Position numbers and translations under genes: made by a program
The notes under the pieces: generated by a model
The model's database searches: none
The model's input: only the letters and a program-made list of their open reading frames with translations
What the model was told of the DNA's origin: nothing
Shown: positions 10,937-48,285 of the stretch, piece after piece
How positions within the stretch are numbered: position 1 is the first letter of the stretch
How the letters are laid out: each line of letters begins with the position of its first letter
Source of the DNA: Coriobacteriaceae bacterium
Lineage (GTDB): Bacteria > Actinomycetota > Coriobacteriia > Coriobacteriales > QAMH01
Length of the DNA: 64,000 nt
NCBI GenBank assembly: GCA_025992705.1
Contig: DAJPGJ010000001.1
Coordinates: forward strand, 1,553,270 to 1,617,269
Reading direction: 5' to 3'

Positions 10937-11338
10937 CTATGCTGCCTGGGGAAAGCCGATGACGCAATACTCGATGACAGATGACTGTCTCTCTCCTATC
11001 ACAACAATCTCGGCACCACTCATCGCCTCCACCTCACGACGCAACGCACGGACCTCGCGCTTGAGGCTCTCGTTCTCTTGTACGAGCCGGTCATAGCTAT
11101 ACGCAGAATAACCGCCGATTCCACGCCCCTCGCGCGCGTCTTCGACCAACTGCCTGAGATTCTGTTTCCTGTAAAGCGAACTTCGCGCAATCTGCGCACG
11201 ATCTGCGACCTTGTAGAACGAGGGTGTCTTACCTTCTGCCAACAAAGAGACAATCGCATCACGGACGCTTTCTTCCATGGCGTTCTCTCGCTTCATGCGA
11301 AAACACCGCAGCGACGCTGATTGATGATTTCCTGTCAT
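10937..11338 (-). CDS. small HTH/coiled-coil protein resembling the small TnpC/DUF6262-type proteins of tyrosine-recombinase transposons
   Basis: LLAEGKTPSFYKVADRAQIARSSLYRKQNLRQLVEDARE is followed by a coiled coil. The start is uncertain (MTGNHQ or MEESV). A decayed paralogue lies at 19706..20069. Confidence 0.45.
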   Translation of the reverse strand: MTGNHQSASLRCFRMKRENAMEESVRDAIVSLLAEGKTPSFYKVADRAQIARSSLYRKQNLRQLVEDAREGRGIGGYSAYSYDRLVQENESLKREVRALRREVEAMSGAEIVVIGERQSSVIEYCVIGFPQAA

Positions 11339-11591
11339 GTTTGGCGACACCTTCCTTCGCAGACGAGCAACTACATCACAAGAGCATTTTACAGGGCAAC
11401 AGGGACATGAGATTTCTGGCAATTACATGTCGGGAATATCGAATTCGGACTATTGCGACTGTTTTTGTCTAGAGCCAGCTGCAGTACGGTACCTACAGCA
11501 ACTTATTCATTGGAAGCATGCAGGTGTCACCAAATGAGCAAGAAATTCACGACATGGTTTGCGCAGGTGTTGAGGGTCGAACAAAAAGCGG

Positions 11592-13221: not shown

Positions 13222-13460
13222 TCTTAATTTGAAATATCCCCATCTTCCTCAGGATGCAATCTCCATCCTTCTTTTAAGTAATCTGCATACGAGGGATACT
13301 CACTCGCATAAATGCTTGTAATCTCTTCGCGCATTGGCTCGATGATAGCCAGAAAGGGACGCTCGGGATTCAGCATGAATCCGGATGAATCAGGAAGCCA
13401 ATTCTCGAAACTCTCAAAATGGTTCGCCTGTGTTTACTCATACACGCAAGCCCAATAATC

Positions 13461-14791
13461 GGGCTATGTTTCAAAAAGTGTGTCCGAATAAGACCCGTTA
13501 CCCCAGTTGAACACAAGCAAATCAGGTCCTTGAGTTGGAATCGCCCAACTCGAAGGTGTTTCAAAAAGTGTGTCCGCTTTCCTCTTGACGTGCCTGTTCA
13601 GGCAAGCTTTCCGAAGGGAAAAGTTGCCTAGTGGACAGGATGACGCCTTGAGTAGCCCGAGATGCGACGTTTGCGGAAGCGAGATGAAGGGGAACGGATA
13701 CACGAAGGCAGGGACCAAGCGCTGGCGGTGCAAGTCGTGCGGTGCCTCCAAGACGAGAAGGATTGACAACGCCGCCAAGCTGCTCCGGGCCTTCCTTGCC
13801 TGGATCCTCTCCAAGAGGTCGATCGCCGATCTCGGATACAGCAGGTCGACCTTCTGGCGAAAGTGCGCCGGGTTCTGGGAGCTTTGGCCCATCGCCCCTT
13901 TCACCGGCGAGGTCTTCGACACGGTCTTTCTCGACGGCATCTGGTTTTCCCACGACGCCGTCGTGCTCGTCGCGCGCTCCAAGGAGCACGTGATCGCATG
14001 GCACCTGGCGCAAAGGGAGTGCTCGAGCTCCTGGGCGGCGCTGATGATGAGGATACCCGCTCCGATGCTGGTGGTGTCGGACGGATCCACCGGGCTCGCG
14101 AAGGCGGCGCGCACCGTATGGCCCGGCACCAGGATACAGCGCTGCGTCGTGCATGCCGCGCGCCAGGTCAAGCGCTACACGACCAAGAGTCCCAAGCTCG
14201 AGTGCGGCCGCGAGCTCCTGGGCATCGCGAACCGCCTGACGAGGGCCAAAGACGAGGACGCGATGAGGGAGTGGCTCGTCGACTACGCGCAGTGGTGCTC
14301 CGATTGGAGCGAGTTCCTGAAGGAGTTCACGGTGAAAGACGGCAGGAGGGTCTACACGCACGAGAGGCTGCGGCGGGCCAGGGGAAGCCTCAACCGCCTG
14401 GTGAAGGAAGGGACGCTTTTCACATTCATCGAGATGCAAAGGGAGCGCGGCGGGCGCTGGGATTCCACCAACAACCCGATCGAGAGCCTGAACGCGCAAC
14501 TGAGGGAGATGCTCAGGCTGCATCGGGGATTGCCGCTGCTGCACCGCGTGAAGGCCGTCATGTGGTGGTGCTACATGCACACCGAAGAGCCCGAGAGCCC
14601 GGCGGAGATCCTGCGCCGCATGCCGAGGGACGAAGACGTCGACGGGCTTTTCGCAACCGTCTCGGGCGAGGGCCGGCATTCGGATGGAAGCCCGGAGAGG
14701 TATGGGAAGGCCATCGACTGGAACGAGTTTCACATGCCGACGAGGTACCGTCAGTGATGTCCCGCCGGACACACTTTTTGAAACATAGCCC
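13461..14791 (+). mobile_element. IS256-family (IS1249-group) insertion sequence, about 1.33 kb
   Basis: The terminal inverted repeats are a perfect 25-bp match (GGCTATGTTTCAAAAAGTGTGTCCG at 13463..13487, reverse complement at 14766..14790). It is flanked by the 8-bp direct repeat CAATAATC (13453..13460 and 14792..14799). Confidence 0.85.
13570..14757 (+). CDS. IS1249-type (IS256 family) transposase
   Basis: An N-terminal Cys4 finger (CDVCGSEM...WRCKSCG) and a DDE-type core (VVSDGSTGLAKAA; RCVVHAARQV; NNPIESLNAQLR) are present. The exact start is uncertain. Confidence 0.85.
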   Translation: MSAFLLTCLFRQAFRREKLPSGQDDALSSPRCDVCGSEMKGNGYTKAGTKRWRCKSCGASKTRRIDNAAKLLRAFLAWILSKRSIADLGYSRSTFWRKCAGFWELWPIAPFTGEVFDTVFLDGIWFSHDAVVLVARSKEHVIAWHLAQRECSSSWAALMMRIPAPMLVVSDGSTGLAKAARTVWPGTRIQRCVVHAARQVKRYTTKSPKLECGRELLGIANRLTRAKDEDAMREWLVDYAQWCSDWSEFLKEFTVKDGRRVYTHERLRRARGSLNRLVKEGTLFTFIEMQRERGGRWDSTNNPIESLNAQLREMLRLHRGLPLLHRVKAVMWWCYMHTEEPESPAEILRRMPRDEDVDGLFATVSGEGRHSDGSPERYGKAIDWNEFHMPTRYRQ

Positions 14792-16373
14792 CAATAATCT
14801 GCCAAATAGGAAATAATCTGTCCGAAATTATACGAGTGCACGCCAAATTGGCAGCGAGCGGAACTTTCCCCGCTGCTTAAGTCTATAAACTCATAATGAC
14901 CCTTGAGAGGCAAATGTACGTATTCACATAATGCTCCATATAATCTGCCGACAGGCTTTATCTTTGCCTTAAGACGACCGATGGATTTCGTAGGCGAAAT
15001 TTTCTCCGCTTCTTCCAAATCCTTCGCCTTGCAGGCGTTATACGCCCATGCGATTTGCTCTAGCATCAACCTACTCATAGCATGAGCCTCGATCATATGG
15101 CCTTCCCTGTATAACATTGCGGCGACATAATAAGTATTCTTCGCCCGAGTTAAGGCCGCATCTGAATATACCTCTCCCGCGTTCGGCTCAGCTTCAGGAT
15201 GCATCCGCCGCATCGTGTCTTCCATGTGCTGCTTTCCCGCAAAGTACATTCTCTGAAACGCCAGATGTATATCTGGAATGTCAGGCTCACTACTAGAAAC
15301 AAGATGCCTCAAAGCGTAGTCAAATGGTGTGCCCAAATTATGTGCAGCAATCGCCGCCTGAACATATTCGACCAGCTTTTTCGGTGCATTTCTTGATATA
15401 TGGACAGCATGTGCCGAATAGCCAATCTGCGTGTAGTCTTCAAGGAGATCTCGACTTGCTTCAGCACGCATTTGTTCAAACGTCTCGTATGGCACCCCTT
15501 CTGCAAACGATGCGCTAATCCCCTGGTACCCCGTGTTATTTTCCGCATCATCCTCATCGCTTGTCATCATATCGATTGGATCATCCTCAGCATTGCTGTA
15601 TCTGTATAGGAGCTTGCGAGATGAGGTCAAACGGTAACCGTTATCCATTAACATTTGTATCGAATCTTTACCTACGGACCTCGGGTCATATTTGGTGTTC
15701 TGTTCCTGGGAAGCGTAATACCCATCAGCAGCATCAGCCAGGTAGCAGCAAAGTTCGGGCATCACACCAATATATTGATAAACAGCATGCGGGAGCTTAT
15801 CAAAGAAGTCTTGTAGATTAGCAGCTTCGTAAGCTTCTCGCGATAACTCGAGTTTATGGATGTAAAGCACATCAACATACATCCCAGAAGGACTTTCGAT
15901 AAGCCCTTCGCCCTCTAAATCAGTGGCTACTTCGCATAAATCCGCATTGCAATCATCGCATTCCATAACGATATTGCGCTTATCCCTATAGGCCTGTGCG
16001 CCGAATATGAATGCACCGTCAAGATGACCAACCAAGTCCACCTTCGCATCATCACCGTAAAGGGAGATGACGGTATCCCCATCTTCTTGTTCAAGCGCGA
16101 AGTTCATTGTCAGCCATGTGATATGCGGAAACTCTTCTTCAAATAACCTAGTACTTTCGTACTCCTTCCCATTTTCAAACGGAACGGAAATAAGCAAGTC
16201 CTTGAAATTTAGCTCTGCTGACATGATGACTATCCTTAAATACGTTTAGCGATAATAAATGGCTTGTCTCGATGTTTACATTTAACTCGCGGCGGACAGA
16301 GACCGAAGAAAATATCCGTCAATCCGCAACTCTTCGAATCTCTCGAAACCACTCTGCTGCAGGAAACGAGCCG

Positions 16374-16753: not shown

Positions 16754-17226
16754 CGCATCCCCATCTGCCTGTCACTGAATCTCTCGGAGGTCTACGTCCT
16801 CTTCGGCGCGCTCGCGGAATACGTCCGCGGGAAAGACGGGCAGGACTCGCACCGCAAGACCGCCAAGCGCCTCGCGGGCATGGCCAAGTCCCAGCTGAGC
16901 GATTATGCGAAGGAGAGGCTTCAAGCGCGGCAGCATGCGAGTTCATCTAGGGCATGACATCAAGCGCAAGAACAAACGGCTGCGCCCCATCGTGCGCCGT
17001 GCAGATGATGATTGCGACATCGTGCCGTTGGCAGAGGTGATTGACGTGAGGAGGGGTGCGGGGTGAAATTCTTGCAGACATTGTGAATGACGGGCTCATC
17101 TTAGTGCGGCTATAAAACTCTTCAATTCATCTGCGAATGTAACAACTCTTAAGAAAAGGTTTTCCATTTACTTATTACACCCCTTACCCGAAAATACTAA
17201 GTGAACAATGAGGAAAAGGAGAGACC

Positions 17227-17514
17227 GTGTCCAACAAAAAGCATCGCTGGAGTCTTGAAGAAGATACATATTGCTGTGAAACATGCGTCAAATACTATGT
17301 TGCGGAAAAATCAAACATGCCTGTCGAAGTTCTTGTCAAAGAATTGTCTGAGCATTTTCCGAATATCTCAACAACATCGCTAAGAATGAAAATCCAGAAT
17401 ATTAAGCAAATTCTTGAAGAAGAAGGAATAGAAAACAGTTTACGTATTGGTCCACTCTCAAATTATTCGCAGCAAAACAAGAAAGCTATGCAAAACGTAT
17501 TAAGAAAGCAATGA
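17227..17514 (+). CDS. small AT-rich protein (95 aa) with a weak Myb/SANT-like pattern
   Basis: KHRWSLEEDTYC...FPNISTTSLRMKIQNIKQIL is present, with AAGGAGAGACC upstream of the start codon. It is convergent with the kinase gene. Confidence 0.4.
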   Translation: MSNKKHRWSLEEDTYCCETCVKYYVAEKSNMPVEVLVKELSEHFPNISTTSLRMKIQNIKQILEEEGIENSLRIGPLSNYSQQNKKAMQNVLRKQ

Positions 17515-17707
17515 CGAAGAAGGAGCTTCTGCGAAGCTTTGGTAAAAGCGCTATCTGGGGCACAGACGCTCCATCAGACTCTAAGTCAAGAAGACGATGC
17601 CCGTGCGGCTCACGCTACCTATGAGAATCGCCATCACATTTTCGTTCCCTGAACGGTCAGCCCGGTATACCCTAGCCATTTCAGCAATCGGTACTGGATG
17701 ACCCGCG

Positions 17708-19552
17708 CTATTCAACCTCGACTAGACCAAGCACCTTGGCTAAGGTTACGGTTACGTCAAAAACTAGGTTCCATACGTGCATGATTTTATCTTCCACTTT
17801 GAGCGGCAATCTGAACAAATCGTCAATATCAGCCTCGAAGATATAGTGACCTCGTGCAATTTCTCGTGCTTCTTTTTTAAATTCGTCGTAATGCTCTTGG
17901 TCGTCGAATATTACAATCGCCTGCTCATCTTCGATCTGACTTTCGATATTCGAATACTTTTCATTGAGAATATCGAGAATCTCTTTTGCTCTTCGGTAAT
18001 AGACGGACTCCGCTTTCCTCAAGGCACGCGCAAACGCATGATTCTCTAAATATGAATTCAGGATAGGATCTTCAACATCAGATATCGAAACGTGGTCTAT
18101 AAGATTGAAATCATCCAGCAATTCATCAGGCGTTGCATCAGGATAAGTGGCCGCACAGATATCAAGCGCAATTCTCCCAGCAATCCAGAAAAGCGGCTCA
18201 TCTTCCCCAAAAACAAAAGGAGACTTATCGATCATGTTTACTGCGTCAATAAGCTCTTCGCAGTGATACGAACTACACGAAACAAAGTATTTTCGAACTC
18301 TAACCCCCAGAGCCTCGCTTGAGATTCTTCCGCTCAAGTAAAACGAATGCTTTTCTAGCCATTCATCAAGCTTGACCCGAGAAGCTTCGCTTGGCCCATC
18401 ATCGTAGAGATTCTGTTTGCCATCTCCGGATATCGAATGATATATGTTCGATTCGTAAAGGAACTTACTCTTGCATTTTTCAAGCACTTGAGCAAAACGC
18501 GACGCGTTAATTAGGTCTTCCGATGGATTGAAACGAATGTTGCAATGATAGTTAGAATTAATCTGATCCCAATCTTCAGGTTTTAAAGATGCAACTAATT
18601 TATTGGCTAGCAGCATATCTTCGGCAGCTTGGCGATAAACAATACCCCTCGTTTTGCTGTCAATACCCTCAGCCCAACCCCCAAAGCATTCCTTATCTAA
18701 TTCTCGTAGCTCCTTTTCGGCATCGTCAAGGGCGTTCACAAGCTCCTGTTGAATTCTGCCTAGCTCAAGTCTGGCATGCGAGACGGATATCCTTTTCGCA
18801 GGATCCTGATACGTCATACGCCGAACTAGATCATCTAAATCACCGAGCAACGGCTCTGCCTGAGATATTGTTTTGAAGTTGCTCCCACGAGGAATGCTCC
18901 CAGTGAATATTTCATTTGTAATGAGCCCAACAGCAAAGACATCGACAGCAGCAGTAATCTTCGTTTGATCAGCACCCTTCCCCTGCTCGGGGGCAAAATA
19001 TAAACGATTCGCCAGCAAATCTTTTGTTTTGGTAACTGAAAAATCTTCAAAATGAGCAATGCCGAAATCTGCAAGAACTGGAAGATTATCCATCCCAATA
19101 AGAATGTTCTCAGGCTTTATGTCTCGATGGATGACCCCATCTGAGTGAATCACTTCTACGGCACCGTATAGTTTCAGAAGAAGATTGATCTTTTCGTTGA
19201 TGCCGAGATTCACATCGTCCATCGTTTTACGCAAATCACGTTCATAGTACGGCATCACATACAGAAGGGATGTGGTTCTTTTGCCGCCCTTCCCAGTTTC
19301 CTCAATCTCTTCAGCGCCGATTATCTGAATAATGTTGTCAGAATGATAATGTCTGCAATACTCAACTTCTTTTCTAAAACGCTTATTCTTAGTCTTGTTC
19401 TTCTTCTTTTTTTCATCAAGTAACGGTACTTTCTTTATTGCATAGGTTTTATCTTCTGATATGGCACAAATTACCGTCCCCGTCCCTCCTTGCCCCAGCT
19501 GTCCCCTTTTAGAGAGTGAGTACTTAACTCCTTCAATCGATACTTCCGTCAC
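17708..19552 (-). CDS. Hanks-type Ser/Thr protein kinase with an uncharacterised C-terminal domain of about 330 aa
   Basis: All catalytic motifs are intact: GQGGTGTV, YAIKKV, HRDIKPENIL, LADFGIA, YFAPEQ and DVFAVGLITNEIF. There is no TM or PASTA segment. The codon usage is strongly AT-rich. Confidence 0.8.
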   Translation of the reverse strand: MTEVSIEGVKYSLSKRGQLGQGGTGTVICAISEDKTYAIKKVPLLDEKKKKNKTKNKRFRKEVEYCRHYHSDNIIQIIGAEEIEETGKGGKRTTSLLYVMPYYERDLRKTMDDVNLGINEKINLLLKLYGAVEVIHSDGVIHRDIKPENILIGMDNLPVLADFGIAHFEDFSVTKTKDLLANRLYFAPEQGKGADQTKITAAVDVFAVGLITNEIFTGSIPRGSNFKTISQAEPLLGDLDDLVRRMTYQDPAKRISVSHARLELGRIQQELVNALDDAEKELRELDKECFGGWAEGIDSKTRGIVYRQAAEDMLLANKLVASLKPEDWDQINSNYHCNIRFNPSEDLINASRFAQVLEKCKSKFLYESNIYHSISGDGKQNLYDDGPSEASRVKLDEWLEKHSFYLSGRISSEALGVRVRKYFVSCSSYHCEELIDAVNMIDKSPFVFGEDEPLFWIAGRIALDICAATYPDATPDELLDDFNLIDHVSISDVEDPILNSYLENHAFARALRKAESVYYRRAKEILDILNEKYSNIESQIEDEQAIVIFDDQEHYDEFKKEAREIARGHYIFEADIDDLFRLPLKVEDKIMHVWNLVFDVTVTLAKVLGLVEVE

Positions 19553-19705
19553 TTGAACTCCCTTTCCAGACCTTCATCGATTTTGAGCATGCAGAGATAA
19601 TCCATTTAAGTCTCCGATTTAAATAATTATTGAAAGGCCATTATATGGGGCAAACTTCCAATAACACCCCGGATACGCTGCTCAAGGAAACCGAGAACGA
19701 ATAAC

Positions 19706-20069
19706 TCAACAACAGACGATTGCACTTCCCCTATCGCGAAAACCCCAACATCGCTCACTGCCCTCATCTCGCAACACAATTTGCAAACATCGCGTCAAAA
19801 CTCTCGTTCCTCGCAAAAGCTCCTCGTGCTTGCGCGCAGAATAATCACCTATTCCACGCTCTACGCGTGCATTTTCGACCATCTGCTTTAGAGTTTGCCT
19901 CCTGCAAAGCGAGTTTCGTACAATCCGCTCACGCCTCCGCAACCCTGCAGAACAAGGTATCCCCCTTCCGCCAGCAGCAAGACAATCGCATCGCTACGCT
20001 TTCCTCCATCACGTCTTTTCAACCGGCATAGAGGTGCTACAGCGTCGTCGATTGATGATTATCGATCAT
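19706..20069 (-). pseudogene. decayed paralogue of the small HTH gene at 10937..11338
   Basis: It aligns at the nucleotide level over about 330 bp, including the upstream leader (GATTGATGATT...). At least two frameshifts and premature stops occur relative to copy 1 (MEESV... then out of frame). Confidence 0.55.
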
Positions 20070-20320
20070 GCCTGACGCCCTCCCTCGAGCGTCAAAATAG
20101 GAGCATGCCGCCATGATCTTTGGCGACGCGTTGCCGATATCATAATCGAACTCAGTAATATCGGGACTTGCCCTCTCATAGGTCACGTCGTAGGTGATCC
20201 GGTTCTCCGTCATTCATGGCACTCGGTCGAATTGTTTTCATTTACTGAAAACTTATTCAGTGAATAATTTTTCAGCAAATCGCCTTACCCACCGGCTCCC
20301 TACTTGCCAGCGCTCCGCCT

Positions 20321-21145
20321 TCACAAAAACACGTCAGCGACCTCGTCAGCAGTGAGGGCCCGCTGCTCTTCGGGCGAAAGGCTCGCCTCGCCGTCACCAT
20401 CCTGCGAGCCGTACGAGCCGAACTGGGCGTGGTTGCCGCCGGGGATGACGAGCTCGCGCGCGTCCTCGCCGAGGTTTCCCTCGTTGTCGGCGGCGGCCCG
20501 GCGGTTCAGCACCCCATCCGAATCCCCCGTGACGCTCAGCACCGTGACGCCGTCATCGGAGAGGTCGGCGGTGGAATAGGCCCCCAGCAGCACGAGGCCG
20601 TCCCACGACCGCGCGTGGCCGTCGAGGTAGCCGGCCGCCATGACGCCACCGAGCGAGTGCCCCATCAGGATCCATCTCTGCACGGCGGGAAACTGCCCCT
20701 GCACGCCGTCGGCCCCGTTCGCGTCGAGCACGGACAGGTTGAACGGCATGCAGACGATTACGCAGAGGAACCCGCGCTCGGCCAGGTCCTGCATGAGCGG
20801 CGCGTACGCCTCAGCCTGCACCTTGCCTCCGGGGTAGAAGACGATTCCGGCCCGCGGATCGTCGGGGACGAAGGCGATGTCGCCGCCCTCCAGCCGCTGC
20901 ACGGCCACGGTGTCGGTCGGTTCCATGGCGGCCAGGGCCGCGTCATCCGCGTGATAGTAGTCGCCCACGTAGACGCCGAAGCCTATGATGCCGGCGACGA
21001 TGATCGCGAGGACGGCCACCAGGGCGATCTTCAGCTTGCGGTGGGTCTTGCGGACCGGGGTATGCTCCACCTTGCCCGCGAGCAGCTCCTCTTCGCATGC
21101 CGGCTCGGCGGCGTTGGTGATGTCCGATTTACTCTCCAGGGTCAT
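20321..21145 (-). CDS. membrane-anchored alpha/beta hydrolase
   Basis: An N-terminal TM helix and the nucleophile elbow MGHSLGG are present, in high-GC core-like composition. The start was chosen at MTLESK. Confidence 0.7.
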   Translation of the reverse strand: MTLESKSDITNAAEPACEEELLAGKVEHTPVRKTHRKLKIALVAVLAIIVAGIIGFGVYVGDYYHADDAALAAMEPTDTVAVQRLEGGDIAFVPDDPRAGIVFYPGGKVQAEAYAPLMQDLAERGFLCVIVCMPFNLSVLDANGADGVQGQFPAVQRWILMGHSLGGVMAAGYLDGHARSWDGLVLLGAYSTADLSDDGVTVLSVTGDSDGVLNRRAAADNEGNLGEDARELVIPGGNHAQFGSYGSQDGDGEASLSPEEQRALTADEVADVFL

Positions 21146-21214
21146 GGCCTGCTCCCGCTCGGGCGGATTGCAACATGCGTCTCGCGGATGCATATCGCAT
21201 CCCGATTGCAGCTC

Positions 21215-21895
21215 CTACCGTGAAAGTCTTTTAGCTGACGTCGATTTGAGGTAGTTCTTCTTCAAATCCCTCGCACTCATGAAAAACTCTTTCTCGGAAT
21301 TGCTAAGGCCTTCACACTTGAGCTTCTCTTCGAGGAGCGTGAGCGTGCAGAACATATCCGCAGCTTGGAACAGGCTGTAGTCCGACGGTGAGACCTTTCT
21401 GACGTCGGCCTCGAGGAAGGCGTTGAAGAGCGTGTTCACCAGGTTGGTGATCTCCTTCTGGCCGTTGTCATAATAGACAATGATACGGTCGAAAGACTGC
21501 AAGAAGCCCAGGTTATCGCGCAGGAAAGAGCTCACCTCGCGCGATATCCGGGAAACCATTTTGTCGTGATCGGCAAACTCCCGCTTCCTGAAGACGAAGG
21601 ACTTGTAGGAGATATCGCAAAGACGCATGAACGTAAACAGCGATCGGAAGAGCTTTCGACGCGCCGTCAGGTCCATACTCACGTAATCCCTTTCGCGTCT
21701 GATGAGCGGAGCGGAGTGCACGGCATGGTCTTCGGAAAGGCCCTGCTCGACAAGATGGCGTCTCAGATGATCAATCTGGTCTGCGATGTCAGCGCTCTGA
21801 TCATGAAAGACCAACGTGATGATGTAGTACGGAGCATGATGTTCGTATGGGCCAAAGTCACCCGACTCGTCTATGAACACACTGAGCTCAGCCAT
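21215..21895 (-). CDS. DUF3800 domain protein
   Basis: The N-terminus is LSVFIDESGDFG, and YYDNG lies further on. Confidence 0.7.
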   Translation of the reverse strand: MAELSVFIDESGDFGPYEHHAPYYIITLVFHDQSADIADQIDHLRRHLVEQGLSEDHAVHSAPLIRRERDYVSMDLTARRKLFRSLFTFMRLCDISYKSFVFRKREFADHDKMVSRISREVSSFLRDNLGFLQSFDRIIVYYDNGQKEITNLVNTLFNAFLEADVRKVSPSDYSLFQAADMFCTLTLLEEKLKCEGLSNSEKEFFMSARDLKKNYLKSTSAKRLSR

Positions 21896-22023
21896 GGGTC
21901 TCCTGAAAATGAAATGGCGGGGAAAAAGTCCCCGCCCTTGGGTGGACCAGGGCCTTTCGGCCAGCCCAGAATATGACTAGTTTATAGCACGTTTTCATAA
22001 CCCCGTCCATAGGCGCGCGCTTC

Positions 22024-22560: not shown

Positions 22561-23354
22561 AGCTGCCTGCCGCCTTATCAATTGCTTCTGGAGTACGGGA
22601 TCGAAGAGCCTTGGAAGAAGAGAAGCAACACAAAACAAGACGCTTTCGTCAAACGGATCAACAAAGATGCCGGAGCGTTTCTCCGCAACAGCCTGATGCC
22701 TGAAATGCTGGCCTATCTCAAAGAGCAACATATCGTCGATGCGTCTTTGCGCATCGACGAGGACGCCCCCCCCCCCCAACGCTCAGATTCTTCTATCCGC
22801 AGTCCTTTTCCGATGATTCCATTTTGCAAGAAATCCGATTGGAGACAGGCGCCCTTGCGGCGTGGACGCCCACAACAGTGGCGCTCATCAGCCCGTATAT
22901 TGCAGAGGCGTTCCCGGAGGCCTTTGCTCGCCTGACAACATCAGTGCTGGCAGTTTCTCCCGAAAGGACGTTCTGGGAAAAGACGACCATCCTGCACAAG
23001 GAGGCATTCCGCACGAACGGAAGGTCTCCCTCCAGATACTCTCGCCACTACTACGATCTTTACATGCTTGCGAATTCTGATGTCAAGTCGCGAGCACTAA
23101 ATGATACGAACCTTCTCAAGAGTGTAGCGGATTTCAAGATGGCTTTCTGGCGGTCGAACACCGCACGACATGACCTATGCGCTCCCGGAACGCTGAAGCT
23201 CATGCCTCCAAAGGGGTCCCTCCCTTTGGTCGAAGAAGACTATGCATCCATGCGAAATATTATTTTCGGCGATGCTCCCGACTTCGGCGAACTGATATTG
23301 GGAATATCCGAGCTTGAATCTGAGATTAATAATCCCGAGCCTTCAAAAGGGTAA
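22552..23354 (+). pseudogene. AbiEii/AbiGii-family (DUF1814) nucleotidyltransferase toxin remnant: 5'-truncated and frameshifted at a C12 tract
   Basis: Downstream of the tract the frame reads TLRFFYPQSF...RTFWEKTTILHKEAFR...SRHYYDLYMLANS. Upstream of the tract the reading frame differs by one nucleotide. The N-terminal NTase motif region is missing. Confidence 0.6.
22766..22777. repeat. homopolymeric C12 (G12 on the minus strand) tract
   Basis: Counted directly in the sequence. Confidence 0.95.
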
Positions 23355-23838: not shown

Positions 23839-25209
23839 TTAGTTCGACCACTCCATTCCAGACGCATCCTTCTTATCTATCGAAAGGTAATCCTCCTTGC
23901 ATCCCCAAGTGTTAGTTTCGACCTCCAAAAGTCTTCGAAGGAATACCTGATACATTTCATCAGACTGCTCTCCGTCCAGGGTGAGAACCATAAAGCAATC
24001 ACATAGATCACTTGCTAAGTTTCCGACTAAAAATAGAAGATCGGATTTTTGCTGATTAGGGGTAATTGGCAAATTTGCAATTTCCTCTAAAAGAATTGTT
24101 GCCATCGACAAAGAACAGATAGTCGCCACAGAGCTTTCGTCAAATTCCGCATACAAATCCGGCTCATAGAAGAAAGAGCGTGCAGTCAATGCATCAATAT
24201 GCACGAATTGGCATGCATATCTGTAGAAAAGACCTCTTAATTCCTTGTCTGCGCAGGTTCCATTCCTCTCGCACTCAGCACCGATCTTCAGCTCGTCCTT
24301 CCTATTGCGCTTAGGGGCATCAGAGCCAAATAGCGAGTCAATCCTGAGCTTTTTGTAATTAATCACGCCATCTTTTATCTCAAACCCATATTCAGCAAAT
24401 GATAGAGAGGGCAGGATCTTGCTTGTGAAGAAATCTTCGTCACAGTTGATAGATCTCATACTTATGTAGCTTTCGAATAGGCTCCTTCCCAACGCATAGA
24501 TCGATGCGGGTTCGGCAATCTCACGCAACTTCGAGATTGAGTTAATCGTTTTAACAGCCCGAATTGCCATAAAAGGCACATACTCTGCGAGCGAATAAGG
24601 TGGCGCCTCGATATCGCCTCTGTCTTTATTTTGGTAGTTCAAAAAATAATTTAGTCCGCTTGTCAAAGAAGACGCGACATTGCTTATCCGCTCGTCAATG
24701 ATTTCGTTTCCCATTAGAACAAGCGCAGGAATACTTACATTCAGTCCTTCCCCGCAATCTCCGGTCCTCAAACGAGCGGCTTCGTCAACTATTTCATCAT
24801 ACTCTTCCATATATGCAGAAAATGCGTCTAGATCGTACTGGGTCAAATATCTTTCGTTCATTGCACACGGCATGAGACCCTCTGTACGATACATTGCATA
24901 TATCCAACTCTCTGACATGCCGCTTTCTCGTAGCGGTGGCATCAAGGCTTTGTAGTAGCTATTGCTATGGCGCTCTGCATCAAAGCTAATCAAGTCATCT
25001 GATCCAGGTTCTCTACCGAACAGCTTGCAGAATTTGTCACGAGAACGATGAAAAGCTTCGAGGTGTTCTTCAGGTATCAAAGCTTCATACTTTGATACAA
25101 ACGAACCATCATCGTCTCTAAACCAGTTAATGCCTTTCTTCTTGCAACATTTTTTATATTTCTTTCCTCTACCGCAAGGGCACTTTTCATTCGGACTGAC
25201 CTCTTTCAT
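23839..25209 (-). CDS. SEC-C-motif protein with a helical C-terminal module (DUF5677/AbiV-like pattern, tentative)
   Basis: The N-terminus is CPCGRGKKYKKCCKKK. Later come GRSLFESYISMRSI and LFYRYACQFVH. An ATG is preceded by GGAGG. The gene is AT-rich. Confidence 0.6.
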   Translation of the reverse strand: MKEVSPNEKCPCGRGKKYKKCCKKKGINWFRDDDGSFVSKYEALIPEEHLEAFHRSRDKFCKLFGREPGSDDLISFDAERHSNSYYKALMPPLRESGMSESWIYAMYRTEGLMPCAMNERYLTQYDLDAFSAYMEEYDEIVDEAARLRTGDCGEGLNVSIPALVLMGNEIIDERISNVASSLTSGLNYFLNYQNKDRGDIEAPPYSLAEYVPFMAIRAVKTINSISKLREIAEPASIYALGRSLFESYISMRSINCDEDFFTSKILPSLSFAEYGFEIKDGVINYKKLRIDSLFGSDAPKRNRKDELKIGAECERNGTCADKELRGLFYRYACQFVHIDALTARSFFYEPDLYAEFDESSVATICSLSMATILLEEIANLPITPNQQKSDLLFLVGNLASDLCDCFMVLTLDGEQSDEMYQVFLRRLLEVETNTWGCKEDYLSIDKKDASGMEWSN

Positions 25210-25552
25210 AAATACCTCCAATACGAAATATTTTGGATGGCATTAGAGCAAGCATCTTTCCGTCCTCAAATTCGTACACCAAAAGGAACGGGTATATGGA
25301 TGCTCTCACACAAATCTAGGACAAAAAATGCTACATCTAGATTGAAAAGCAAGAGAAGATTCCGCAAATGCTGGACATGCATAGGCTATACAGAGATAAA
25401 GCATACCAATTACTACAGCACTTCCAGCACAAATTATCAAAGCAGCCAGCGCCTTCGCTATTCCTTGAAAAAAGTGATTGAATCGTTTCGAGAGTTGTTA
25501 TCTTCGCCCACAAAGTATCCAATAAGCGGATATTAACTAACAAGCATCTGCG

Positions 25553-27229
25553 CTATTCCCACTCCACGGTACTCGGCGGCTTGGACGTGATGTCGTAGAC
25601 CACGCGGTTGATCCCCGGGACCTCGGCCACGATGCGGCTGCTGATCCGCCCGAGCACGTCGTAGGGCAGCTTGGCCCAGTCCGCCGTCATCGCGTCGCTA
25701 CTCTCCACCGCGCGCAGGATGATCGGGCGCGCGTAGGTGCGCTCGTCGCCCATCACGCCGACGCTGCGTATGTCGGGCAGCACCGCGAAGTACTGCCACA
25801 CGGCCCGCTCGATGACGGGCCCGCCGGCGCATCCGCGCTCGACCTCGCCATTTGGCTCGCCGCTCTCCTCGGCGATCATCGCGTTGTACGCGTCGAGCTC
25901 CTCGCGCACGATCGCGTCGGCCTCCTTGAGCATTGCGAGCTTCTCGGGCGTCACGTCGCCGATGATGCGGATCGCCAAGCCCGGCCCCGGGAACGGCTGG
26001 CGCTGCACGATGTGGTCGGGCAGCCCGAGCGCCGTACCCAGCGCGCGCACCTCGTCCTTGAAGAAGTGATCGAGTGGCTCGATGAGCTCGAAGCTCACAC
26101 CGTCCGGGAACGGAATCAGGTTATGGTGGCTCTTGATGGTCGAGGCCTTGCCGCCAGTCTTGCGCGCGCCGCTCTCGATGATGTCGGGATAGATCGTGCC
26201 CTGCGCCAAAAAGCGCACCGGGCGGTCGTCCTCGGCCAGTTCCTCGGCCACGGCGAAGAACTCCTTCCAGAACTGCTCGCCGATGATGCGACGCTTCTGC
26301 TCCGGGTCGGTCACGCCGGCCAGCAGCTGCGCGTAACGGTCCTCGGCGTGCACGTGCACGAAGTCGACGTCGAACTGCTTGGTGAAGACCTCCTCGACCT
26401 GCTCGGGCTCGTCCTTGCGCAGTAGCCCGTGGTTCACGAACACGCAGGTCACCTGGTCACCGATGGCCTTCGAGACGAGCGCCGCCACGACGCTCGAGTC
26501 CACGCCGCCGGAAAGCCCCAGGATCACGCGGCTGTCCCCCACCTGCTCGCGAATCGCCGCGACCGAATCCTCGATGATCGAGTCCATCGTCCAGCTCTTC
26601 TCGAGCCCGCAGATGTCGAAGAGGAAGTTGGCGAGCATCTGGTTGCCGTGAGGCGTGTGGCGCACCTCGGGATGGAACTGCGTCGCGTACAGCCCGCGCT
26701 CGGCATCCTCCATGGACGCAACCGGGCAGATGTCAGTATGCGAGGTGATGACGAAGCCGTCGGGCACCTCGGTCACGGCATCGCGGTGGCTCATCCACAC
26801 GGTCTGCTCGTGCGGCGTGTCCGCGAGCAACCGCGAATCGGAACCCGCGCGCGTGATCTTGGCCGGGCCGTACTCGCCCTTGTCGGTGTGTCCCACCGCG
26901 CCGCCGAGCGCCACGGCCATGGCCTGCTGCCCGTAGCAGAAGCCGAGCACGGGAATCCCCAGCTCGAAGATGGCCGCGTCCACGCTGGGCGCGTCCTCGG
27001 CGTACACGCTTGCCGGACCGCCCGACAGGATGATCGCCGACGGCGCCAGCTCGCGCACCTCGTCGGCCGTGATGTCGCAGGGTACGATTTCGGAGTAAAC
27101 CCCCAGGTCACGAACGCGCCGGGCAATGAGCTGCCCGTACTGCGCTCCAAAATCCAACACGATGACCAATTGCTGTGGGGTTGCGGACGTCGCCACGGTG
27201 CCTCCTCGAAGATGTCGAATGTATCGCAT
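25553..27229 (-). CDS. guaA: GMP synthase (glutamine-hydrolysing)
   Basis: A GATase domain (VLGFCYGQQ), an ATP-PPase SGGVDSS motif and a conserved C-terminus (...PPSTVEWE) are present. An alternative GTG start lies at 27196. The 691-aa tracked ORF is an upstream over-extension. Confidence 0.9.
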   Translation of the reverse strand: MRYIRHLRGGTVATSATPQQLVIVLDFGAQYGQLIARRVRDLGVYSEIVPCDITADEVRELAPSAIILSGGPASVYAEDAPSVDAAIFELGIPVLGFCYGQQAMAVALGGAVGHTDKGEYGPAKITRAGSDSRLLADTPHEQTVWMSHRDAVTEVPDGFVITSHTDICPVASMEDAERGLYATQFHPEVRHTPHGNQMLANFLFDICGLEKSWTMDSIIEDSVAAIREQVGDSRVILGLSGGVDSSVVAALVSKAIGDQVTCVFVNHGLLRKDEPEQVEEVFTKQFDVDFVHVHAEDRYAQLLAGVTDPEQKRRIIGEQFWKEFFAVAEELAEDDRPVRFLAQGTIYPDIIESGARKTGGKASTIKSHHNLIPFPDGVSFELIEPLDHFFKDEVRALGTALGLPDHIVQRQPFPGPGLAIRIIGDVTPEKLAMLKEADAIVREELDAYNAMIAEESGEPNGEVERGCAGGPVIERAVWQYFAVLPDIRSVGVMGDERTYARPIILRAVESSDAMTADWAKLPYDVLGRISSRIVAEVPGINRVVYDITSKPPSTVEWE

Positions 27230-31708: not shown

Positions 31709-34700
31709 TCAGCGGGCGGCGTCGACGGCGAGGCGGATGCGGTTCTCGCGGTTGAGCGCCGAGGACTCGGGATCGTAGTCAATGACCGTGATGCGCATGT
31801 TGGCAAAGCGCTCGTGCAGCTCACGCAGGGCCCCGCGGGCGCTCACGTGCCCCTTGAGGCAGCCAAAGCTCAGAAGGTAGATGACGTCGTGGATGCCCTG
31901 CTCGGCGAATGCGGCGAGTTGGTCGAGGTAGCGCACGTCATCGCCCTCGAGAAGCGCGGGGTCGGGCATGACGGGCTCGCATCCGAGCGAATCGAGCACC
32001 TCGACGATGCAATCGTTCATGAAGGGCTCGAACACGATGAGCGGGTTGCCGACGATGCCGATGCGGGGGCGAGGATTCGAGTGAGATTTCTCGACTGCGC
32101 CGCCTTCGGCGGCTTCGCTCGAAATGACAGAGGGAGCCATGCCTTCGGCGGCTCCGCTCGAAATGACAGTGTCCCATGGCACCCAGACGTACTCGGGCGT
32201 GCGACCGCAGGCGCGCTCGACGATACGGGGCACGGCATCGGTCAGGCAGGTCTCGCAGACCTGCGGAAGCTCGACGCGCGTGATACCGGAATCGTCGCGC
32301 AGCATGCGGATGACGCGCGCCGCCATCGCGTTGGCGGTGAAGCACACGTCCTTCACGCAGCTACGCCGCGCGCACTCAAGGTCGTTGGCATCGAGAGGTC
32401 GTTTGGCGAGATCGGCGAGCAGCGAAGCGGATGAGCCGGCCCCGCTGTCATCTCGACCGGAGCGGCCGCCTGGCCGCGCAACGGAGAGATCTCGGGGCGG
32501 AGATTTCTCGACTCCGCTGCCTTCGGCAGCTTCGCTCGAAATGACAGGGGGTGCCGCTTCGTCCGCTTCGGCGGTTCCTCGCATGGCGATGGCCGCGGCA
32601 AGCGTGCGCAGGCGGATGCGGATATGCGCGAGATCGCTGATGTCGTCGACCTTGAGCGTCGTGCACGGCTTGCCCGCCGCGTCGAGCACGTCAGCTGCCT
32701 CCTCGACCGACACCGCCTCGAACCCGCAGCCAAACGACTGCAGAAACACGGCGTCGAGCTGCGGATGGCCGGCGACGAAGCGCGCGATCCCGACGAGCCG
32801 CTTGGCAGGCACCCATGGATACGCGCCATCGAGGTGCGCCTTCGCACGTGATGGGTCGGCCGCCGCGAGACCCGCCACGCCCAGCACCGCAAACCCCAAC
32901 CGGGCGAGCTCGCGGTCAATGCCGTGCAGTAGCGCCTCGTCCATGTGATACGGACGTCCGGCGAGCACGATGCCGTGACGCGACGGATCCTCGGCAAGCC
33001 AGCGCAGGGCACCCTCGGACCGCTCCGCGAGCTCGGCGTTGACCTCCTCCTGGCGCTGCATCGCCATGGAAAACGCCCGGTCGAACTCGCCACGCGTGAT
33101 GGCGGGCACCTCGTCGCCGGCGAGCTCGTTCATGGCGTCGAACAGCCGCTCCATCGAGGCCTCGTCGCGAACGAATCGCGCGGGACGGTAGTTGGCGAGC
33201 TCGGGCGACACGATGGGCGCGAGACCGGCACCGCTTCGGGCCGTCCCGACGTTGGCGGCAAGCGCGCTGGCGTATCCGGTCTGGACCGGGCAATGGTAGT
33301 TGCGCGTGAAGCGCGGCATGAAGACGGCATCGCAGCCGCCCTCGCACAGGCTGAAGTAGCGCACGTGCGACGTCTTGGCCGGATAGCACGCGCTCTCGGA
33401 AGGCACCGTCTCCCACGCCTCGCTCATGCGGTCGGCCTCGCAACCGGGTCGGGGCAGCATGACGCTGAAGCCGAGCTCGACGAGCAACGTGCGCCAGAAG
33501 GGTCGGTACGCGTAGAGCGCCATCGAGTCCATGAGGCCGATGCGCCGCGAACCGCGACTCCCCCGCTGCTCAATGTCGCCAAACGACGCGATCAGGCGCT
33601 GCTCGTCGGCAATGACGTTGGGAGGTGGGACTGGGACAGGGGGAGCCACCTCGTTCGCCTCTCCCCATCGGCGCCGCGGCTCGTCGAGGCCGCGTTCGCA
33701 CTTGTTGTCGCTGACGAAGCAACGCGTCCTCTCGGCATCGAAGCTCACAATCGACAGCTCGCATGCGTTCGCGCAACCCGTGCACGCGACCTTCTCGCGA
33801 CGAATCTCGAGACACCGAAGCTCGTCGAGGCTGATGAGACCGCTTTTCGCCGTCGTATCCGCACCCACCGCGTCGAGCGCGAAAAGCGCGCAGCCAATCG
33901 CTCCCATGAGGTGCGCCTGCGCGGGGCGCACGGCCTCGACGCCGCACAGCAGCTCGAAGGCACGCAGCACGGCGTCCGAGCGGAAGGTTCCGCCCTGGAC
34001 GACCACGCGCTGCCCGGGCTGCGGGATGCGATCGTCACCGATGATGCGATGCAGGGCGTTCTTGACGACGGAGTACGCGACGCCGGCGGCGATGTCCTCG
34101 ATCGGCGCACCGGTTTTCTGCGCGTGCTTGACCCGCGAGTTCATGAAGACCGTACACTTGGTGCCCAGGTCGATGGGATGGCGCGCGAGCAGGGCATCAT
34201 CGGCAAACTGCCACGGCGTCGTCTTGAGCGCGGCGGCCGTGCCCTCGATGAACGCGCCGCATCCGCTCGAGCACGCCTCGTTGAGCGCCGCATCGGTCAC
34301 CATGCCGTGTCGCACCCACAGTGCCTTCATGTCCTGTCCGCCTATGTCGAGCAGGAAGTCGAGGTCATCGCATAGGTGCCGCGCCGAGCGAAGGTGCGCG
34401 GCCGTCTCGACCACCCCCATGTCGACCCCGAATGCGGCGCGCAGCAGCTCCTCGCCGTAACCGGTCGCGCATGCGCGGGCAATCCACGTGCTCGACTTGG
34501 CATGGGGCAGGTACGAAGGCGGCTCGATCTTGCGATACAGCTCGTCGAGCGCCTCGCGCAGCGTCTCGATAAGGTCACCGCGAATGGGCTCGTAGACGCT
34601 GTAGACGATCTGCGCGTCGGCGTTGAGCGCGACGAGCTTGAGGGTCGTCGAACCCGCATCGATGCCGAGGAACAAGGGGCCCGTCGCTTCGTAAATGCCC

Positions 34701-35644
34701 TGACGCTCGAACTCGGCTTGCGCATGCCGCGCGCGAAACGCCGCGAGTTCGTCGGCGTCCTCGAACAGCGGCGGCAGAAATGCGAGGTCGCTCTTGAGCT
34801 CGCCCATGTCGGCGATGCGCCGCTCGAGCTCTGACGTGTTCATGACGACGGGAGCACACCCCAGCGAACGCGTGTCATCCGAGAGCAGCGCTGCGCCCGT
34901 GACGGTGAACAGGTGCGCGTTCTTGGGCTTGACGCCCTCATGCGCCGAAAGCCCGAGCGTCCGACGGAACGCGTGGACGAGATACGGCATGTGCTCGAGC
35001 GGACCGCCCAGGAAGACGACGTTGCCGCGGATGGGGCGCCCGCAGGCCAGCCCCGACAGCGTCTGGCGCACGACGGCGTCGAAAACGCTCGCGGCGATGT
35101 CGGCCTTGCTCGCGCCGGCGTTGAGCAGCGGGCGCACGTCGGTCTGCGCGAACACGGCACAGCGCGAGGCGATCGGATAGCTGCGGCTCGCGCCAAAGGC
35201 CAGCTGGCTCATCTGGCTGCTGCGCATGTCGAGCATGTAGGCGATGGTGTCGATGAATCCGCCGGTTCCACCCGCGCACGTCGCGTTCATGCGCTGCTCG
35301 GGGCGCTCGTCGAGGTAGATGATCTTCGCGTCCTCACCGCCGAGCTCGATGACGACATCGGCGTCTGGCTCGAGGCCGCGCACGGCATGGGTCGTGGCGA
35401 CGACCTCCTGTACGAAGGGAATGCCGAGGACGCGCGCGACCTCGATTGCGGCCGATCCGGTCATGGCGATCGACGCGTCGACGGGGCCGTGGCGCCAGTT
35501 GAAGTCGTGAATTGCCTCGCCCAGCGTGCGCGCGATGTTGGCGCGATGGCGCATGTAGGTGTCGTAGACGACGGCGCCCGACTCATCGAGCACGACGAGC
35601 TTGAGCGTCTTGGAACCGGCGTCGATGCCGATGCGATACGTCAT
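31709..35644 (-). CDS. giant fusion: two BadF/BadG/BcrA/BcrD-type ATPase (activase) domains plus a 2-hydroxyacyl-CoA-dehydratase-related domain
   Basis: There are two copies of the actin-fold start (YRIGIDAGSKTLK; LFLGIDAGSTTLK) and a long C-terminal dehydratase-like region. The start was chosen at MTYRIGID with a GAGG RBS. The ORF is open to 35677. Confidence 0.8.
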   Translation of the reverse strand: MTYRIGIDAGSKTLKLVVLDESGAVVYDTYMRHRANIARTLGEAIHDFNWRHGPVDASIAMTGSAAIEVARVLGIPFVQEVVATTHAVRGLEPDADVVIELGGEDAKIIYLDERPEQRMNATCAGGTGGFIDTIAYMLDMRSSQMSQLAFGASRSYPIASRCAVFAQTDVRPLLNAGASKADIAASVFDAVVRQTLSGLACGRPIRGNVVFLGGPLEHMPYLVHAFRRTLGLSAHEGVKPKNAHLFTVTGAALLSDDTRSLGCAPVVMNTSELERRIADMGELKSDLAFLPPLFEDADELAAFRARHAQAEFERQGIYEATGPLFLGIDAGSTTLKLVALNADAQIVYSVYEPIRGDLIETLREALDELYRKIEPPSYLPHAKSSTWIARACATGYGEELLRAAFGVDMGVVETAAHLRSARHLCDDLDFLLDIGGQDMKALWVRHGMVTDAALNEACSSGCGAFIEGTAAALKTTPWQFADDALLARHPIDLGTKCTVFMNSRVKHAQKTGAPIEDIAAGVAYSVVKNALHRIIGDDRIPQPGQRVVVQGGTFRSDAVLRAFELLCGVEAVRPAQAHLMGAIGCALFALDAVGADTTAKSGLISLDELRCLEIRREKVACTGCANACELSIVSFDAERTRCFVSDNKCERGLDEPRRRWGEANEVAPPVPVPPPNVIADEQRLIASFGDIEQRGSRGSRRIGLMDSMALYAYRPFWRTLLVELGFSVMLPRPGCEADRMSEAWETVPSESACYPAKTSHVRYFSLCEGGCDAVFMPRFTRNYHCPVQTGYASALAANVGTARSGAGLAPIVSPELANYRPARFVRDEASMERLFDAMNELAGDEVPAITRGEFDRAFSMAMQRQEEVNAELAERSEGALRWLAEDPSRHGIVLAGRPYHMDEALLHGIDRELARLGFAVLGVAGLAAADPSRAKAHLDGAYPWVPAKRLVGIARFVAGHPQLDAVFLQSFGCGFEAVSVEEAADVLDAAGKPCTTLKVDDISDLAHIRIRLRTLAAAIAMRGTAEADEAAPPVISSEAAEGSGVEKSPPRDLSVARPGGRSGRDDSGAGSSASLLADLAKRPLDANDLECARRSCVKDVCFTANAMAARVIRMLRDDSGITRVELPQVCETCLTDAVPRIVERACGRTPEYVWVPWDTVISSGAAEGMAPSVISSEAAEGGAVEKSHSNPRPRIGIVGNPLIVFEPFMNDCIVEVLDSLGCEPVMPDPALLEGDDVRYLDQLAAFAEQGIHDVIYLLSFGCLKGHVSARGALRELHERFANMRITVIDYDPESSALNRENRIRLAVDAAR
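32083..32130. repeat. 48-nt palindromic repeat, copy 1 (inside the CDS, in frame)
   Basis: The sequence is GAGATTTCTCGACTGCGCCGCCTTCGGCGGCTTCGCTCGAAATGACAG. On the minus strand it encodes VISSEAAEGGAVEKS. Confidence 0.9.
32141..32169. repeat. half copy of the 48-nt repeat (inside the CDS, in frame)
   Basis: The sequence is GCCTTCGGCGGCTCCGCTCGAAATGACAG. It encodes VISSGAAEG. Confidence 0.85.
32500..32547. repeat. 48-nt palindromic repeat, copy 3 (inside the CDS, in frame)
   Basis: The sequence is GAGATTTCTCGACTCCGCTGCCTTCGGCAGCTTCGCTCGAAATGACAG. It encodes VISSEAAEGSGVEKS. Confidence 0.9.
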
Positions 35645-35666
35645 GGGCGACCTCGGGGCGACGAAT

Positions 35667-35703
35667 GAATGAGACAAATCCAGCCCGGCGGGATTTGTCT
35701 CAT
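35667..35703. repeat. 14-bp-stem hairpin AATGAGACAAATCC[agcccggcg]GGATTTGTCTCATT just upstream of the activase-fusion gene
   Basis: The inverted repeat is perfect. The loop nearly matches that of the 27923 and 35779 hairpins. Confidence 0.8.
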
Positions 35704-43904: not shown

Positions 43905-44060
43905 AATTGGCTTACGGGCCGCCTCCGATAGGCGGTGCCTCGTAGAGGCCTCGGGGAATGCGGGTGCAAATCCCGCGCTATACCAGTAACCGTAAGGCGC
44001 CGCATGCGTGCGGCCGAAGTCGGACTACCGAGCCATGACCGAAAGCCCTGGATGAAAGAG
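43905..44060 (+). ncRNA. cobalamin (B12) riboswitch
   Basis: GGGAAUGCGGGUGCAAAUCCCGCGCU...CCGUAAGG and the B12-box-like GAAGUCGGACUACCGAGCC are present. A TACAAT box sits at 43891. B12-uptake-type genes lie downstream. The boundaries are approximate. Confidence 0.65.
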
Positions 44061-48201: not shown

Positions 48202-48235
48202 GCGCTAGAAGCCCATCACGACGATACACATTCGA

Positions 48236-48279: not shown

Positions 48280-48285
48280 GGATTG

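Follow-up and report, generated by a model that had tools for sequence, protein, structure and literature searches.

Stk2 of Staphylococcus epidermidis is described as a single-gene Ser/Thr kinase that acts as an abortive-infection system (Depardieu et al. 2016, as presented in PMC11470126). A second one-gene defence, PD-T4-6 of Escherichia coli, is a Ser/Thr kinase of the eukaryotic-like type (Vassallo et al. 2022, bioRxiv 10.1101/2022.05.12.491691). The models of PD-T4-6 are promiscuous for Hanks kinases, and the same source gives a protein with an N-terminal Ser/Thr kinase domain and two modules of a kinase-binding fold (PDB entry 3py9), which showed a very mild phenotype (PMC11514479). Mobile-element Ser/Thr kinases that affect phage defence are also found in KKP, the kinase-kinase-phosphatase module of Pf prophages (PMC11341870). 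Here we analyze a kinase gene at 17708..19552 on the minus strand of a 64,000-nucleotide stretch (the window; contig DAJPGJ010000001.1, positions 1,553,270 to 1,617,269) from the metagenome-assembled genome (MAG) of a gut Coriobacteriaceae bacterium. The gene is of foreign origin, and its product combines a complete Hanks-type kinase domain with a C-terminal domain that matches no described family. The reading we favor, with a probability of about 45%, is that this family consists of stand-alone anti-phage defence or abortive-infection kinases of the Stk2 and PD-T4-6 kind, with the C-terminal domain as sensor. To our knowledge, few kinase-based anti-phage systems are known, infection sensing by the single-gene ones (Stk2, PD-T4-6) is mostly unclear, and almost no defence systems have been tested in human-gut Coriobacteriaceae.

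Gene and kinase domain

The gene, its upstream signals and the parts of its product are as follows.

17708..19552, minus strand: complete kinase gene from the open reading frame (ORF) listing; the exact-sequence look-up gives HJJ00899.1, 'protein kinase', of a Coriobacteriaceae bacterium MAG
19558..19653, minus strand: upstream signals of the kinase gene, consensus matches only, with a promoter-like TTGCCC-16-AATAAT (19653-19626) and the GGAAAGGGAG ribosome-binding site
18776..19510, minus strand: Hanks-type Ser/Thr kinase domain, residues 15-259 (Pfam Pkinase, invariant columns, motif scan, PDB profile)
18686..18775, minus strand: long linker helix, part of the helix of residues 257-289, from the kinase C-lobe to the C-terminal domain (AlphaFold2 secondary structure)
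17711..18685, minus strand: family-specific C-terminal domain, residues 290-614, about 325-330 residues (AlphaFold2, alignment)
18260..18277, minus strand: signature C426-S-S-Y-H430-C431, invariant in 43 and in 24 sequences

The product has 614 residues and starts with a GTG codon. The Shine-Dalgarno sequence GGAAAGGGAG, read at 19567-19558, ends 5 nt before this codon. The frame is intact and the predicted ribosome-binding site is good.

Residues 15-259 match Pfam Pkinase with an E-value of 1.9e-34 and a score of 119.7 bits, against a cutoff of 31.7, which places the protein in the Hanks superfamily. The motif scan finds GQGGTG (20-25), YAIK with K40, HRDIKPEN (142-149), DFG (162-164) and APE (187-189). 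Residues K40, E62, D144, K146, N149, D162, D204 and R254 are unchanged in an alignment of 43 full-length homologues that share 28-46% identity with the window protein, and such invariance of the catalytic residues argues that kinase activity is under selection. The protein is an RD (Arg-Asp) kinase, and Thr174 of the activation loop is nearly invariant in the same 43 sequences. In the PDB profile search the kinase domain comes nearest to the PknB/StkP kinases (4eqm, PknB, StkP), with E-values of 1e-44 to 1e-39.

Apart from the kinase, neither Pfam nor NCBIfam recognizes a domain in the 614-residue protein, PASTA and FHA included. The highest mean hydropathy over 19 residues is 1.65, at residues 593-611. 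These residues form a conserved strand-helix with a predicted local distance difference test score (pLDDT) above 90; in the model they are part of the folded C-terminal subdomain, and a membrane segment is not obvious. An earlier note on this DNA had described intact Hanks subdomain motifs and a protein with no transmembrane segment, PASTA or FHA domain, and both descriptions agree with these results. Some homologues carry insertions of 60-80 residues right behind the linker helix (alignment columns 401-500). From its sequence, the protein is predicted to be a soluble, catalytically competent Hanks-type kinase joined by a long helix to a family-specific domain.

The C-terminal domain

AlphaFold2 models the full-length protein with a pLDDT of 88.2 and a predicted template modelling (TM) score of 0.76, and residues 285-614 alone with a pLDDT of 87.9. 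The long linker helix is followed by a helical bundle and a terminal alpha/beta subdomain. Invariant positions in this half include A309, D312, C360, E367, F423, C426, H430, C431, F549 and F558. The signature around C426 has the family consensus SCxDYHCxE. C360 (18473-18475) together with C426, H430 and C431 makes a Cys3His set that is invariant in both the 43- and the 24-sequence alignments. Because this Cys-Cys-His-Cys combination is invariant in the family, it suggests a putative structural zinc site.

The domain is a conserved one and not junk, since about 55 database proteins of 570-690 residues can be aligned with 93-100% of the query, at identities of 29-40%. A profile of the C-terminal domain retrieves 172 relatives (clusters) from 1.84 billion representative proteins. 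In nearly all of these the domain lies at positions ~275-590 of proteins of 570-610 residues, and the shorter matches are fragment-like. The region of ~275 residues ahead of the domain is a kinase in every member examined.

Searches for a described relative gave nothing of substance. With the C-terminal domains of 24 family members, PADLOC yields no meaningful match (a single JetA match at chance level, E 0.013, in one member) and Pfam yields chance-level matches only. The PDB sequence profile of the domain has no match below an E-value of 0.29. Foldseek with the C-terminal-only model reaches a best E-value of 0.11 against the PDB, with TM-scores below 0.2, and 0.14 against BFVD; with the full-length model it returns kinases only. 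Aminotransferases, the top PDB matches by fold, were rejected at TM-scores below 0.2 and a root-mean-square deviation of ~19 Å. No characterized non-defence family was matched, and searches of open-access papers and bioRxiv, Pfam and PADLOC v2 turned up no description of the family or its C-terminal domain, nor, in the papers, of a defence kinase with a domain of this kind. These observations support a C-terminal domain that is new and nearly exclusive to one architecture. The earlier note had called this half unassignable by eye and expected the domain to be new. The first judgement extends to Pfam, PADLOC, PDB sequences, PDB folds and BFVD, and the second is borne out by the lack of sequence or fold matches and by the almost exclusive occurrence of the domain in one architecture.

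The last ~100 residues (about 520-614, 17711-17995) resemble small uncharacterized phage proteins in the BFVD search (probability 0.96-0.97, E-value 0.14-0.17, target TM-score 0.38-0.49), a resemblance considered too weak for interpretation. One example is A0A4Y5FED1 of Lactobacillus phage 521B (probability 0.96, target TM-score 0.49, E-value 0.14).

The family is patchily distributed over Actinomycetota, Bacillota and Bacteroidota. Its hosts include Listeria monocytogenes, Sphingobacterium, Streptomyces, Leifsonia and a Bacteroidales MAG, with Propionicicella and Microbacterium added later. A contig scan with the full-length alignment returned mostly unrelated kinases, its patterns having fallen in the kinase core; the true family members from it are two loci only, L011 and L012. 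Metagenomic members lie mostly on contigs of 26-41% GC, which fits a low-GC donor.

Recent transfer of a 3-kb module

The window was compared with L001, a related strain from another metagenome. Two features define the exchanged segment.

17000..20200, no strand: AT-rich module, GC 0.44 (binned identity to L001, composition)
17227..17514, plus strand: 95-residue ORF HJJ00898.1, convergent with the kinase gene, no family (ORF listing, look-up)

Between 17.0 and 20.0 kb the two sequences are 99.4-99.8% identical, while the GC-rich flanks are 90-93% identical, which indicates a recent exchange between otherwise diverged lineages. The exchanged ~3 kb contain the 95-residue ORF, the kinase gene and its upstream region. 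The kinase alleles differ at eight positions, three synonymous and five non-synonymous, too few to be informative on selection. Composition points the same way. The kinase gene has a GC of 0.428 and a GC at third codon positions (GC3) of 0.421, compared with 0.668 and 0.908 in guaA; the whole window has a GC of 0.585. GC3 is 0.84-0.91 in the host genes taken for comparison, namely guaA, the adjacent hydrolase gene and a 1322-codon ORF at 31709-35677. Composition and identity both strongly support a foreign, horizontally acquired gene.

Near-identical full-length copies of the kinase occur on many contigs from independent samples, and the 95-residue ORF accompanies the kinase in such copies; beside the distant kinase homologues it has no counterpart. 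This ORF starts with 'RWSLEED' and has a borderline PADLOC match to PDC-S36 (E 0.013). Two homologues are cargo of integrative/conjugative elements (L099 and L101).

Neighborhoods of the homologues and possible function

Homologues with usable flanks fall into 22 independent locus groups. Counting strong, near full-length matches within ~10 kb, named defence genes accompany the kinase in at least 10 of the 22, with neighbors in 'negative' loci scanned individually in part. The number is 13 when candidates and element cargo are added. The named genes are distributed as follows.

L115: Gabija (GajA 5.5e-161, GajB 4.8e-107) and Tmn 8.5e-85, beginning 54 bp from the kinase
L008: DRT2 9.5e-121
L095: Mza (MzaC 2.2e-109 and MzaE 1.6e-71)
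L096: RosmerTA (RmrA 1.1e-84) and PDC-S19
L109: Lamassu (LmuB 1.2e-39)
L120: type I restriction subunit (restriction endonuclease), E = 0, 38 bp upstream of the kinase
L124: type I restriction-modification (RM) system
L106 group: type III methyltransferase with DndD/PbeC-like and DndH-like proteins
L099: MmeI-type RM, SLFN/AlbA_2, T5orf172 and TIR on an integrative element, behind an integrase/primase module
Window locus: AbiEii remnant

Two more groups, one with PDC-S01 (1.3e-107) and one with PDC-M16A (3e-113), have candidate families only, and in L101 the kinase belongs to element cargo adjoining NERD, RES and ArdA genes. Apart from the kinase itself, no partner gene is common to all 22 groups. 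One sub-clade (L011/L096) has a helix-turn-helix (HTH) gene and a 285-residue gene as partners. A small XRE-family HTH gene directly adjoins the kinase in four independent loci (L106/L112/L123, L099, L009 and L096/L011; phmmer 1e-5 to 1e-26), and it could regulate either the kinase or the adjacent RM genes.

These neighborhoods make a defence role plausible, the argument being entirely one of guilt by association with neighboring genes. In the proposed mechanism, the kinase gene would be a self-contained mobile one-gene module that lands in variable or defence islands. The C-terminal domain would restrain the RD kinase and, as its sensor or regulatory module, register an infection cue. On such a cue the kinase would autophosphorylate its activation loop at Thr174, and the active enzyme would then phosphorylate host and/or phage proteins, so that phage production or cell growth is stopped. 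A more specific proposal, which we put forward tentatively and hold a little less firmly, is that the C-terminal module with its SCxDYHC signature and Cys3His set may be a hitherto undescribed domain that senses infection and gates a Hanks kinase, and that the family may form a new stand-alone immune system across three phyla.

Several facts weigh against a defence role. About half of the loci have no recognized defence gene. In Listeria the homologue is inserted by itself, with an aspartate-kinase-like gene on one side and a peptidyl-prolyl isomerase gene on the other, the Leifsonia homologue lies near glnE/glnA, and those of L117 and L122 adjoin rlmCD. What the window retains of defence neighbors is remnants, a sign that the local island is in decay. 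The likeness to validated defence kinases is one of kinase fold only, with scores no better than those of generic Pkinase/PknB models. The co-location is suggestive, and 10 of 22 is a raw count with no background rate, for which enrichment is not statistically established.

The homologues among ordinary genes would also fit an accessory signalling kinase outside immunity, one that regulates host physiology or the carrier element or island and whose C-terminal domain binds a ligand or a substrate protein. The XRE-type regulators next to the kinase in four independent loci point in this direction as well, and bacteria commonly use Hanks kinases with diverse C-terminal sensor domains as regulators. 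However, a conserved phosphatase, FHA partner, substrate gene or operon is lacking from the homologue loci. No PP2C/FHA pair stands next to the kinase in the examined loci, and none of these loci lies in a cell-wall or division operon. The earlier note, which considered a horizontally acquired defence role plausible, had named such a consistent housekeeping context and a C-terminal match to a well-characterized non-defence family as the two outcomes that would refute it; neither was observed. A rare and very patchy family with horizontal turnover and frequent co-location with defence genes is not what this explanation leads one to expect, and we regard it as unlikely.

The element cargo raises another explanation, that the kinase serves integrative elements in counter-defence or competition and disarms host defence proteins or hits rival elements, as the phage T7 kinase does. 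The cargo at L101 lies near the anti-restriction gene ardA, the homologue of L099 stands behind an integrase/primase module, and anti-defence genes also reside in defence islands. The literature documents one phage kinase able to disarm defences broadly (PMC13645617). Yet no member of the family was found in 2.9 million viral contigs, in 50,697 phage records or among 72,556 plasmids (viral scan, and tblastn with two C-terminal domains), integrase or transfer genes are not seen near most loci, and the window island has no mobility genes of its own. We consider this explanation quite improbable. For the defence reading the absence from phage and plasmid collections is neutral.

If the family does act in defence, it would provide a new sensor fold in bacterial immunity and a handle on phage resistance in gut Coriobacteriaceae. 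It is a compact one-gene case, with a confidently folded unclassified partner domain, clear invariant residues and alleles from three phyla. Should it have no defence role, it would still be a clean example of a recently exchanged module of ~3 kb in a hotspot next to guaA.

The island around the gene and the guaA hotspot

The features that surround the kinase gene are listed below.

13456..14796, plus strand: insertion sequence (IS) of the IS256/Mutator family with 31-nt inverted repeats (Pfam Transposase_mut, repeats, L001 allele with no insertion)
14800-16224, minus strand: N-terminal part of an IS-disrupted gene for a 553-residue protein; the rest continues from 13461 downstream, and the gene is intact at L001 13340-15001
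19835..20077, minus strand: decayed DUF6262-like small gene with three stop codons (direct repeats, stop codons)
22824..23354, plus strand: remnant of an AbiEii toxin gene that retains just the C-terminal 60% (PADLOC, Pfam)
25553..27229, minus strand: guaA, GMP synthase, HJJ00904.1 (Pfam, exact look-up), the conserved boundary of the variable island

The AbiEii remnant matches PADLOC with an E-value of 5.1e-50 over profile positions 140-303 of 309, and Pfam AbiEii over positions 100-232 of 238. A gene for an ADP-ribosylglycohydrolase near the kinase has its 5' end lost or exchanged. The 553-residue protein has no Pfam or PADLOC match; the AT-rich 5' part of its gene (14.5-15.5 kb) is also 98-99% identical to L001 and may be a second exchanged module. 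The decayed small gene has an intact paralogue at about 10937-11346, and three direct repeats, D1-D3, relate 11102-11346 to 19835-20077; they are collinear, 74-83% identical and spaced by 8731-8733 nt. The DUF6262 assignment is a weak match on the L001 orthologue. Between these repeats lie genes for a metallophosphoesterase, a hexapeptide transferase, the 553-residue protein, the 95-residue ORF and the kinase, and the repeats may be the trace of a tandem accretion of two elements. The earlier note had seen an AT-rich gene, plausibly acquired horizontally, in a high-GC genome, bracketed by an IS-disrupted gene, gene remnants and a decayed small gene. Each bracketing feature is confirmed here (the IS256/Mutator insertion, the AbiEii and ADP-ribosylglycohydrolase remnants, the DUF6262-like gene), and the GC3 contrast and the binned identities uphold the acquisition.

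Surrounded by pseudogenes and an IS, the kinase gene might be a functionless relic, a decaying passenger in a degrading island, and some cluster members are indeed shortened to 461-515 residues. The intact frame and good ribosome-binding site do not fit a relic, nor does the retention of all catalytic residues and all family residues that are invariant across phyla, nor the near-identical full-length copies on many contigs from independent samples. We judge a relic very improbable indeed.

The segment between the kinase and guaA is entirely different in the window and in L001. The window has the AbiEii remnant and a SEC-C/DUF5677 protein, whereas L001 has an EcoRI-type methylase, an HTH protein with an ATPase matching the defence candidate PDC-S06, and an AAA+ protein. 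In two further lineages, with guaA DNA 64-68% identical, kinase homologues of 39-40% identity lie a short way downstream of guaA; in L091/L135 they follow it immediately, and in L093 one gene intervenes. Variable islands recur on the 3' side of guaA, a hotspot seen in at least three Coriobacteriia-like lineages, each with a divergent kinase allele. The rest of the cargo differs and includes PDC-S01, an AbiL/HEC-01A-like ATPase, Mza, Macro and Fic.

The SEC-C/DUF5677 protein of the window is a 460-residue ORF (23839-25221, minus strand, GC 0.43) whose N-terminus carries a SEC-C zinc motif and which also has a DUF5677 region; its exact sequence was not found in the protein collection. A DUF5677 protein is also present in the Sphingobacterium island with a kinase homologue (L008 2790-3833). 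The Rfam motif DUF3800-XI RNA lies at 21921-21968 on the minus strand (61.8 bits, gathering threshold 37.8), directly upstream of a DUF3800 gene (21215-21895, minus strand), and this gene with its leader (window 20996-21881) is missing from L001. Farther away, and unrelated to the kinase, an AdoCbl-II (cobalamin) riboswitch is found at 43940-44038 on the plus strand (44.3 bits, gathering threshold 36.5). Further stretches of lower GC (0.41-0.55, in a background of ~0.6-0.68) at 48000-52000 and 59000-64000 may be additional acquired islands.

Comparison with known kinase systems

The best PADLOC matches of the window protein are mad6 (2.4e-39) and PD-T4-6 (3.5e-34), with many weaker ones, MkoA, and Stk2 (1.4e-15), and all of them are confined to the kinase core. 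Judged by these profiles, the 614-residue protein is a member of the Hanks superfamily that stands outside Stk2, PD-T4-6, MAD6 and the other named defence families. Kinase-domain matches from defence-annotation tools are thus not to be trusted at face value.

A Hanks kinase domain is used in defence by MAD6 of MADS, PglW of BREX type 2 and MkoA of Mokosh, and in this the window protein is like them. It differs in scoring 88.1 bits against the MAD6 cutoff of 460 (NF047741), in the kinase region only, and 51 bits against the PglW cutoff of 990 (NF033442), which leaves it outside both families. It also differs from the multigene MADS, BREX and Mokosh systems in architecture, and none of their other subunits is conserved beside the gene. 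These numbers bear on the idea that the kinase belongs, as PglW or MAD6 does, to a larger system linked to methylation or restriction, and that the window copy is an orphan left by island decay. The rank of mad6 as best PADLOC match would agree with this, as would the RM genes directly beside the kinase in L120, L124, L106 and L099 and the visible decay of the window island. Since the adjacent RM systems differ in type, they give no single conserved partner. Neither the mad6 nor the PglW match extends beyond the kinase domain or comes anywhere near its cutoff, and the transferred module comprises only the kinase and the 95-residue ORF. No other mad gene is found in the window by PADLOC or Pfam. 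The 'mad2' neighbors of homologues (L117 3052-4506 and L122 7768-9081; 1e-16 to 1e-22) are housekeeping 23S rRNA methyltransferases of the RlmCD type (PDB entry 5xj1, E 8e-65). As RlmCD had scored as 'mad2', weak PADLOC domain matches were disregarded, and a MADS-like system built on 'mad2/mad3/mad5/mad8' neighbors was rejected, the others being generic ATPase and methyltransferase domains. An orphaned subunit has, in our estimate, a small chance of being right.

Among solved structures, the housekeeping PASTA kinases of the PknB/StkP type have the closest kinase-domain sequence. Unlike them, the window protein has no PASTA repeats and no transmembrane helix, its score against the PknB/Stk1 model NF033483 is 94 bits at a cutoff of 450, which puts it outside that family, and neither a PP2C phosphatase gene nor cell-wall or division genes adjoin its own gene. 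KKP has three genes with a phosphatase and is carried by a prophage, whereas the window kinase is a single gene with no phosphatase and no prophage.

The stand-alone defence kinases are the closest in organization. Like PD-T4-6, the window protein would be a one-gene kinase system. The PD-T4-6 matches cover only residues 5-230, and the C-terminal 330 residues have no PADLOC match at E <= 1, so the protein is not a PD-T4-6 member. Stk2 likewise does not include it; only profile positions 131-320 of 500 are matched (residues 18-222, E 1.4e-15), the domain order is different, and the C-terminal domain of the window protein has no counterpart in Stk2. The two have their overall design in common. 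Each is a cytoplasmic Hanks-type kinase that stands alone, is encoded on mobile or accessory DNA and has a non-kinase part that is presumably the infection sensor. They may also share the logic proposed here, in which a phage cue would activate the kinase, and mass phosphorylation would lead to abortive infection.

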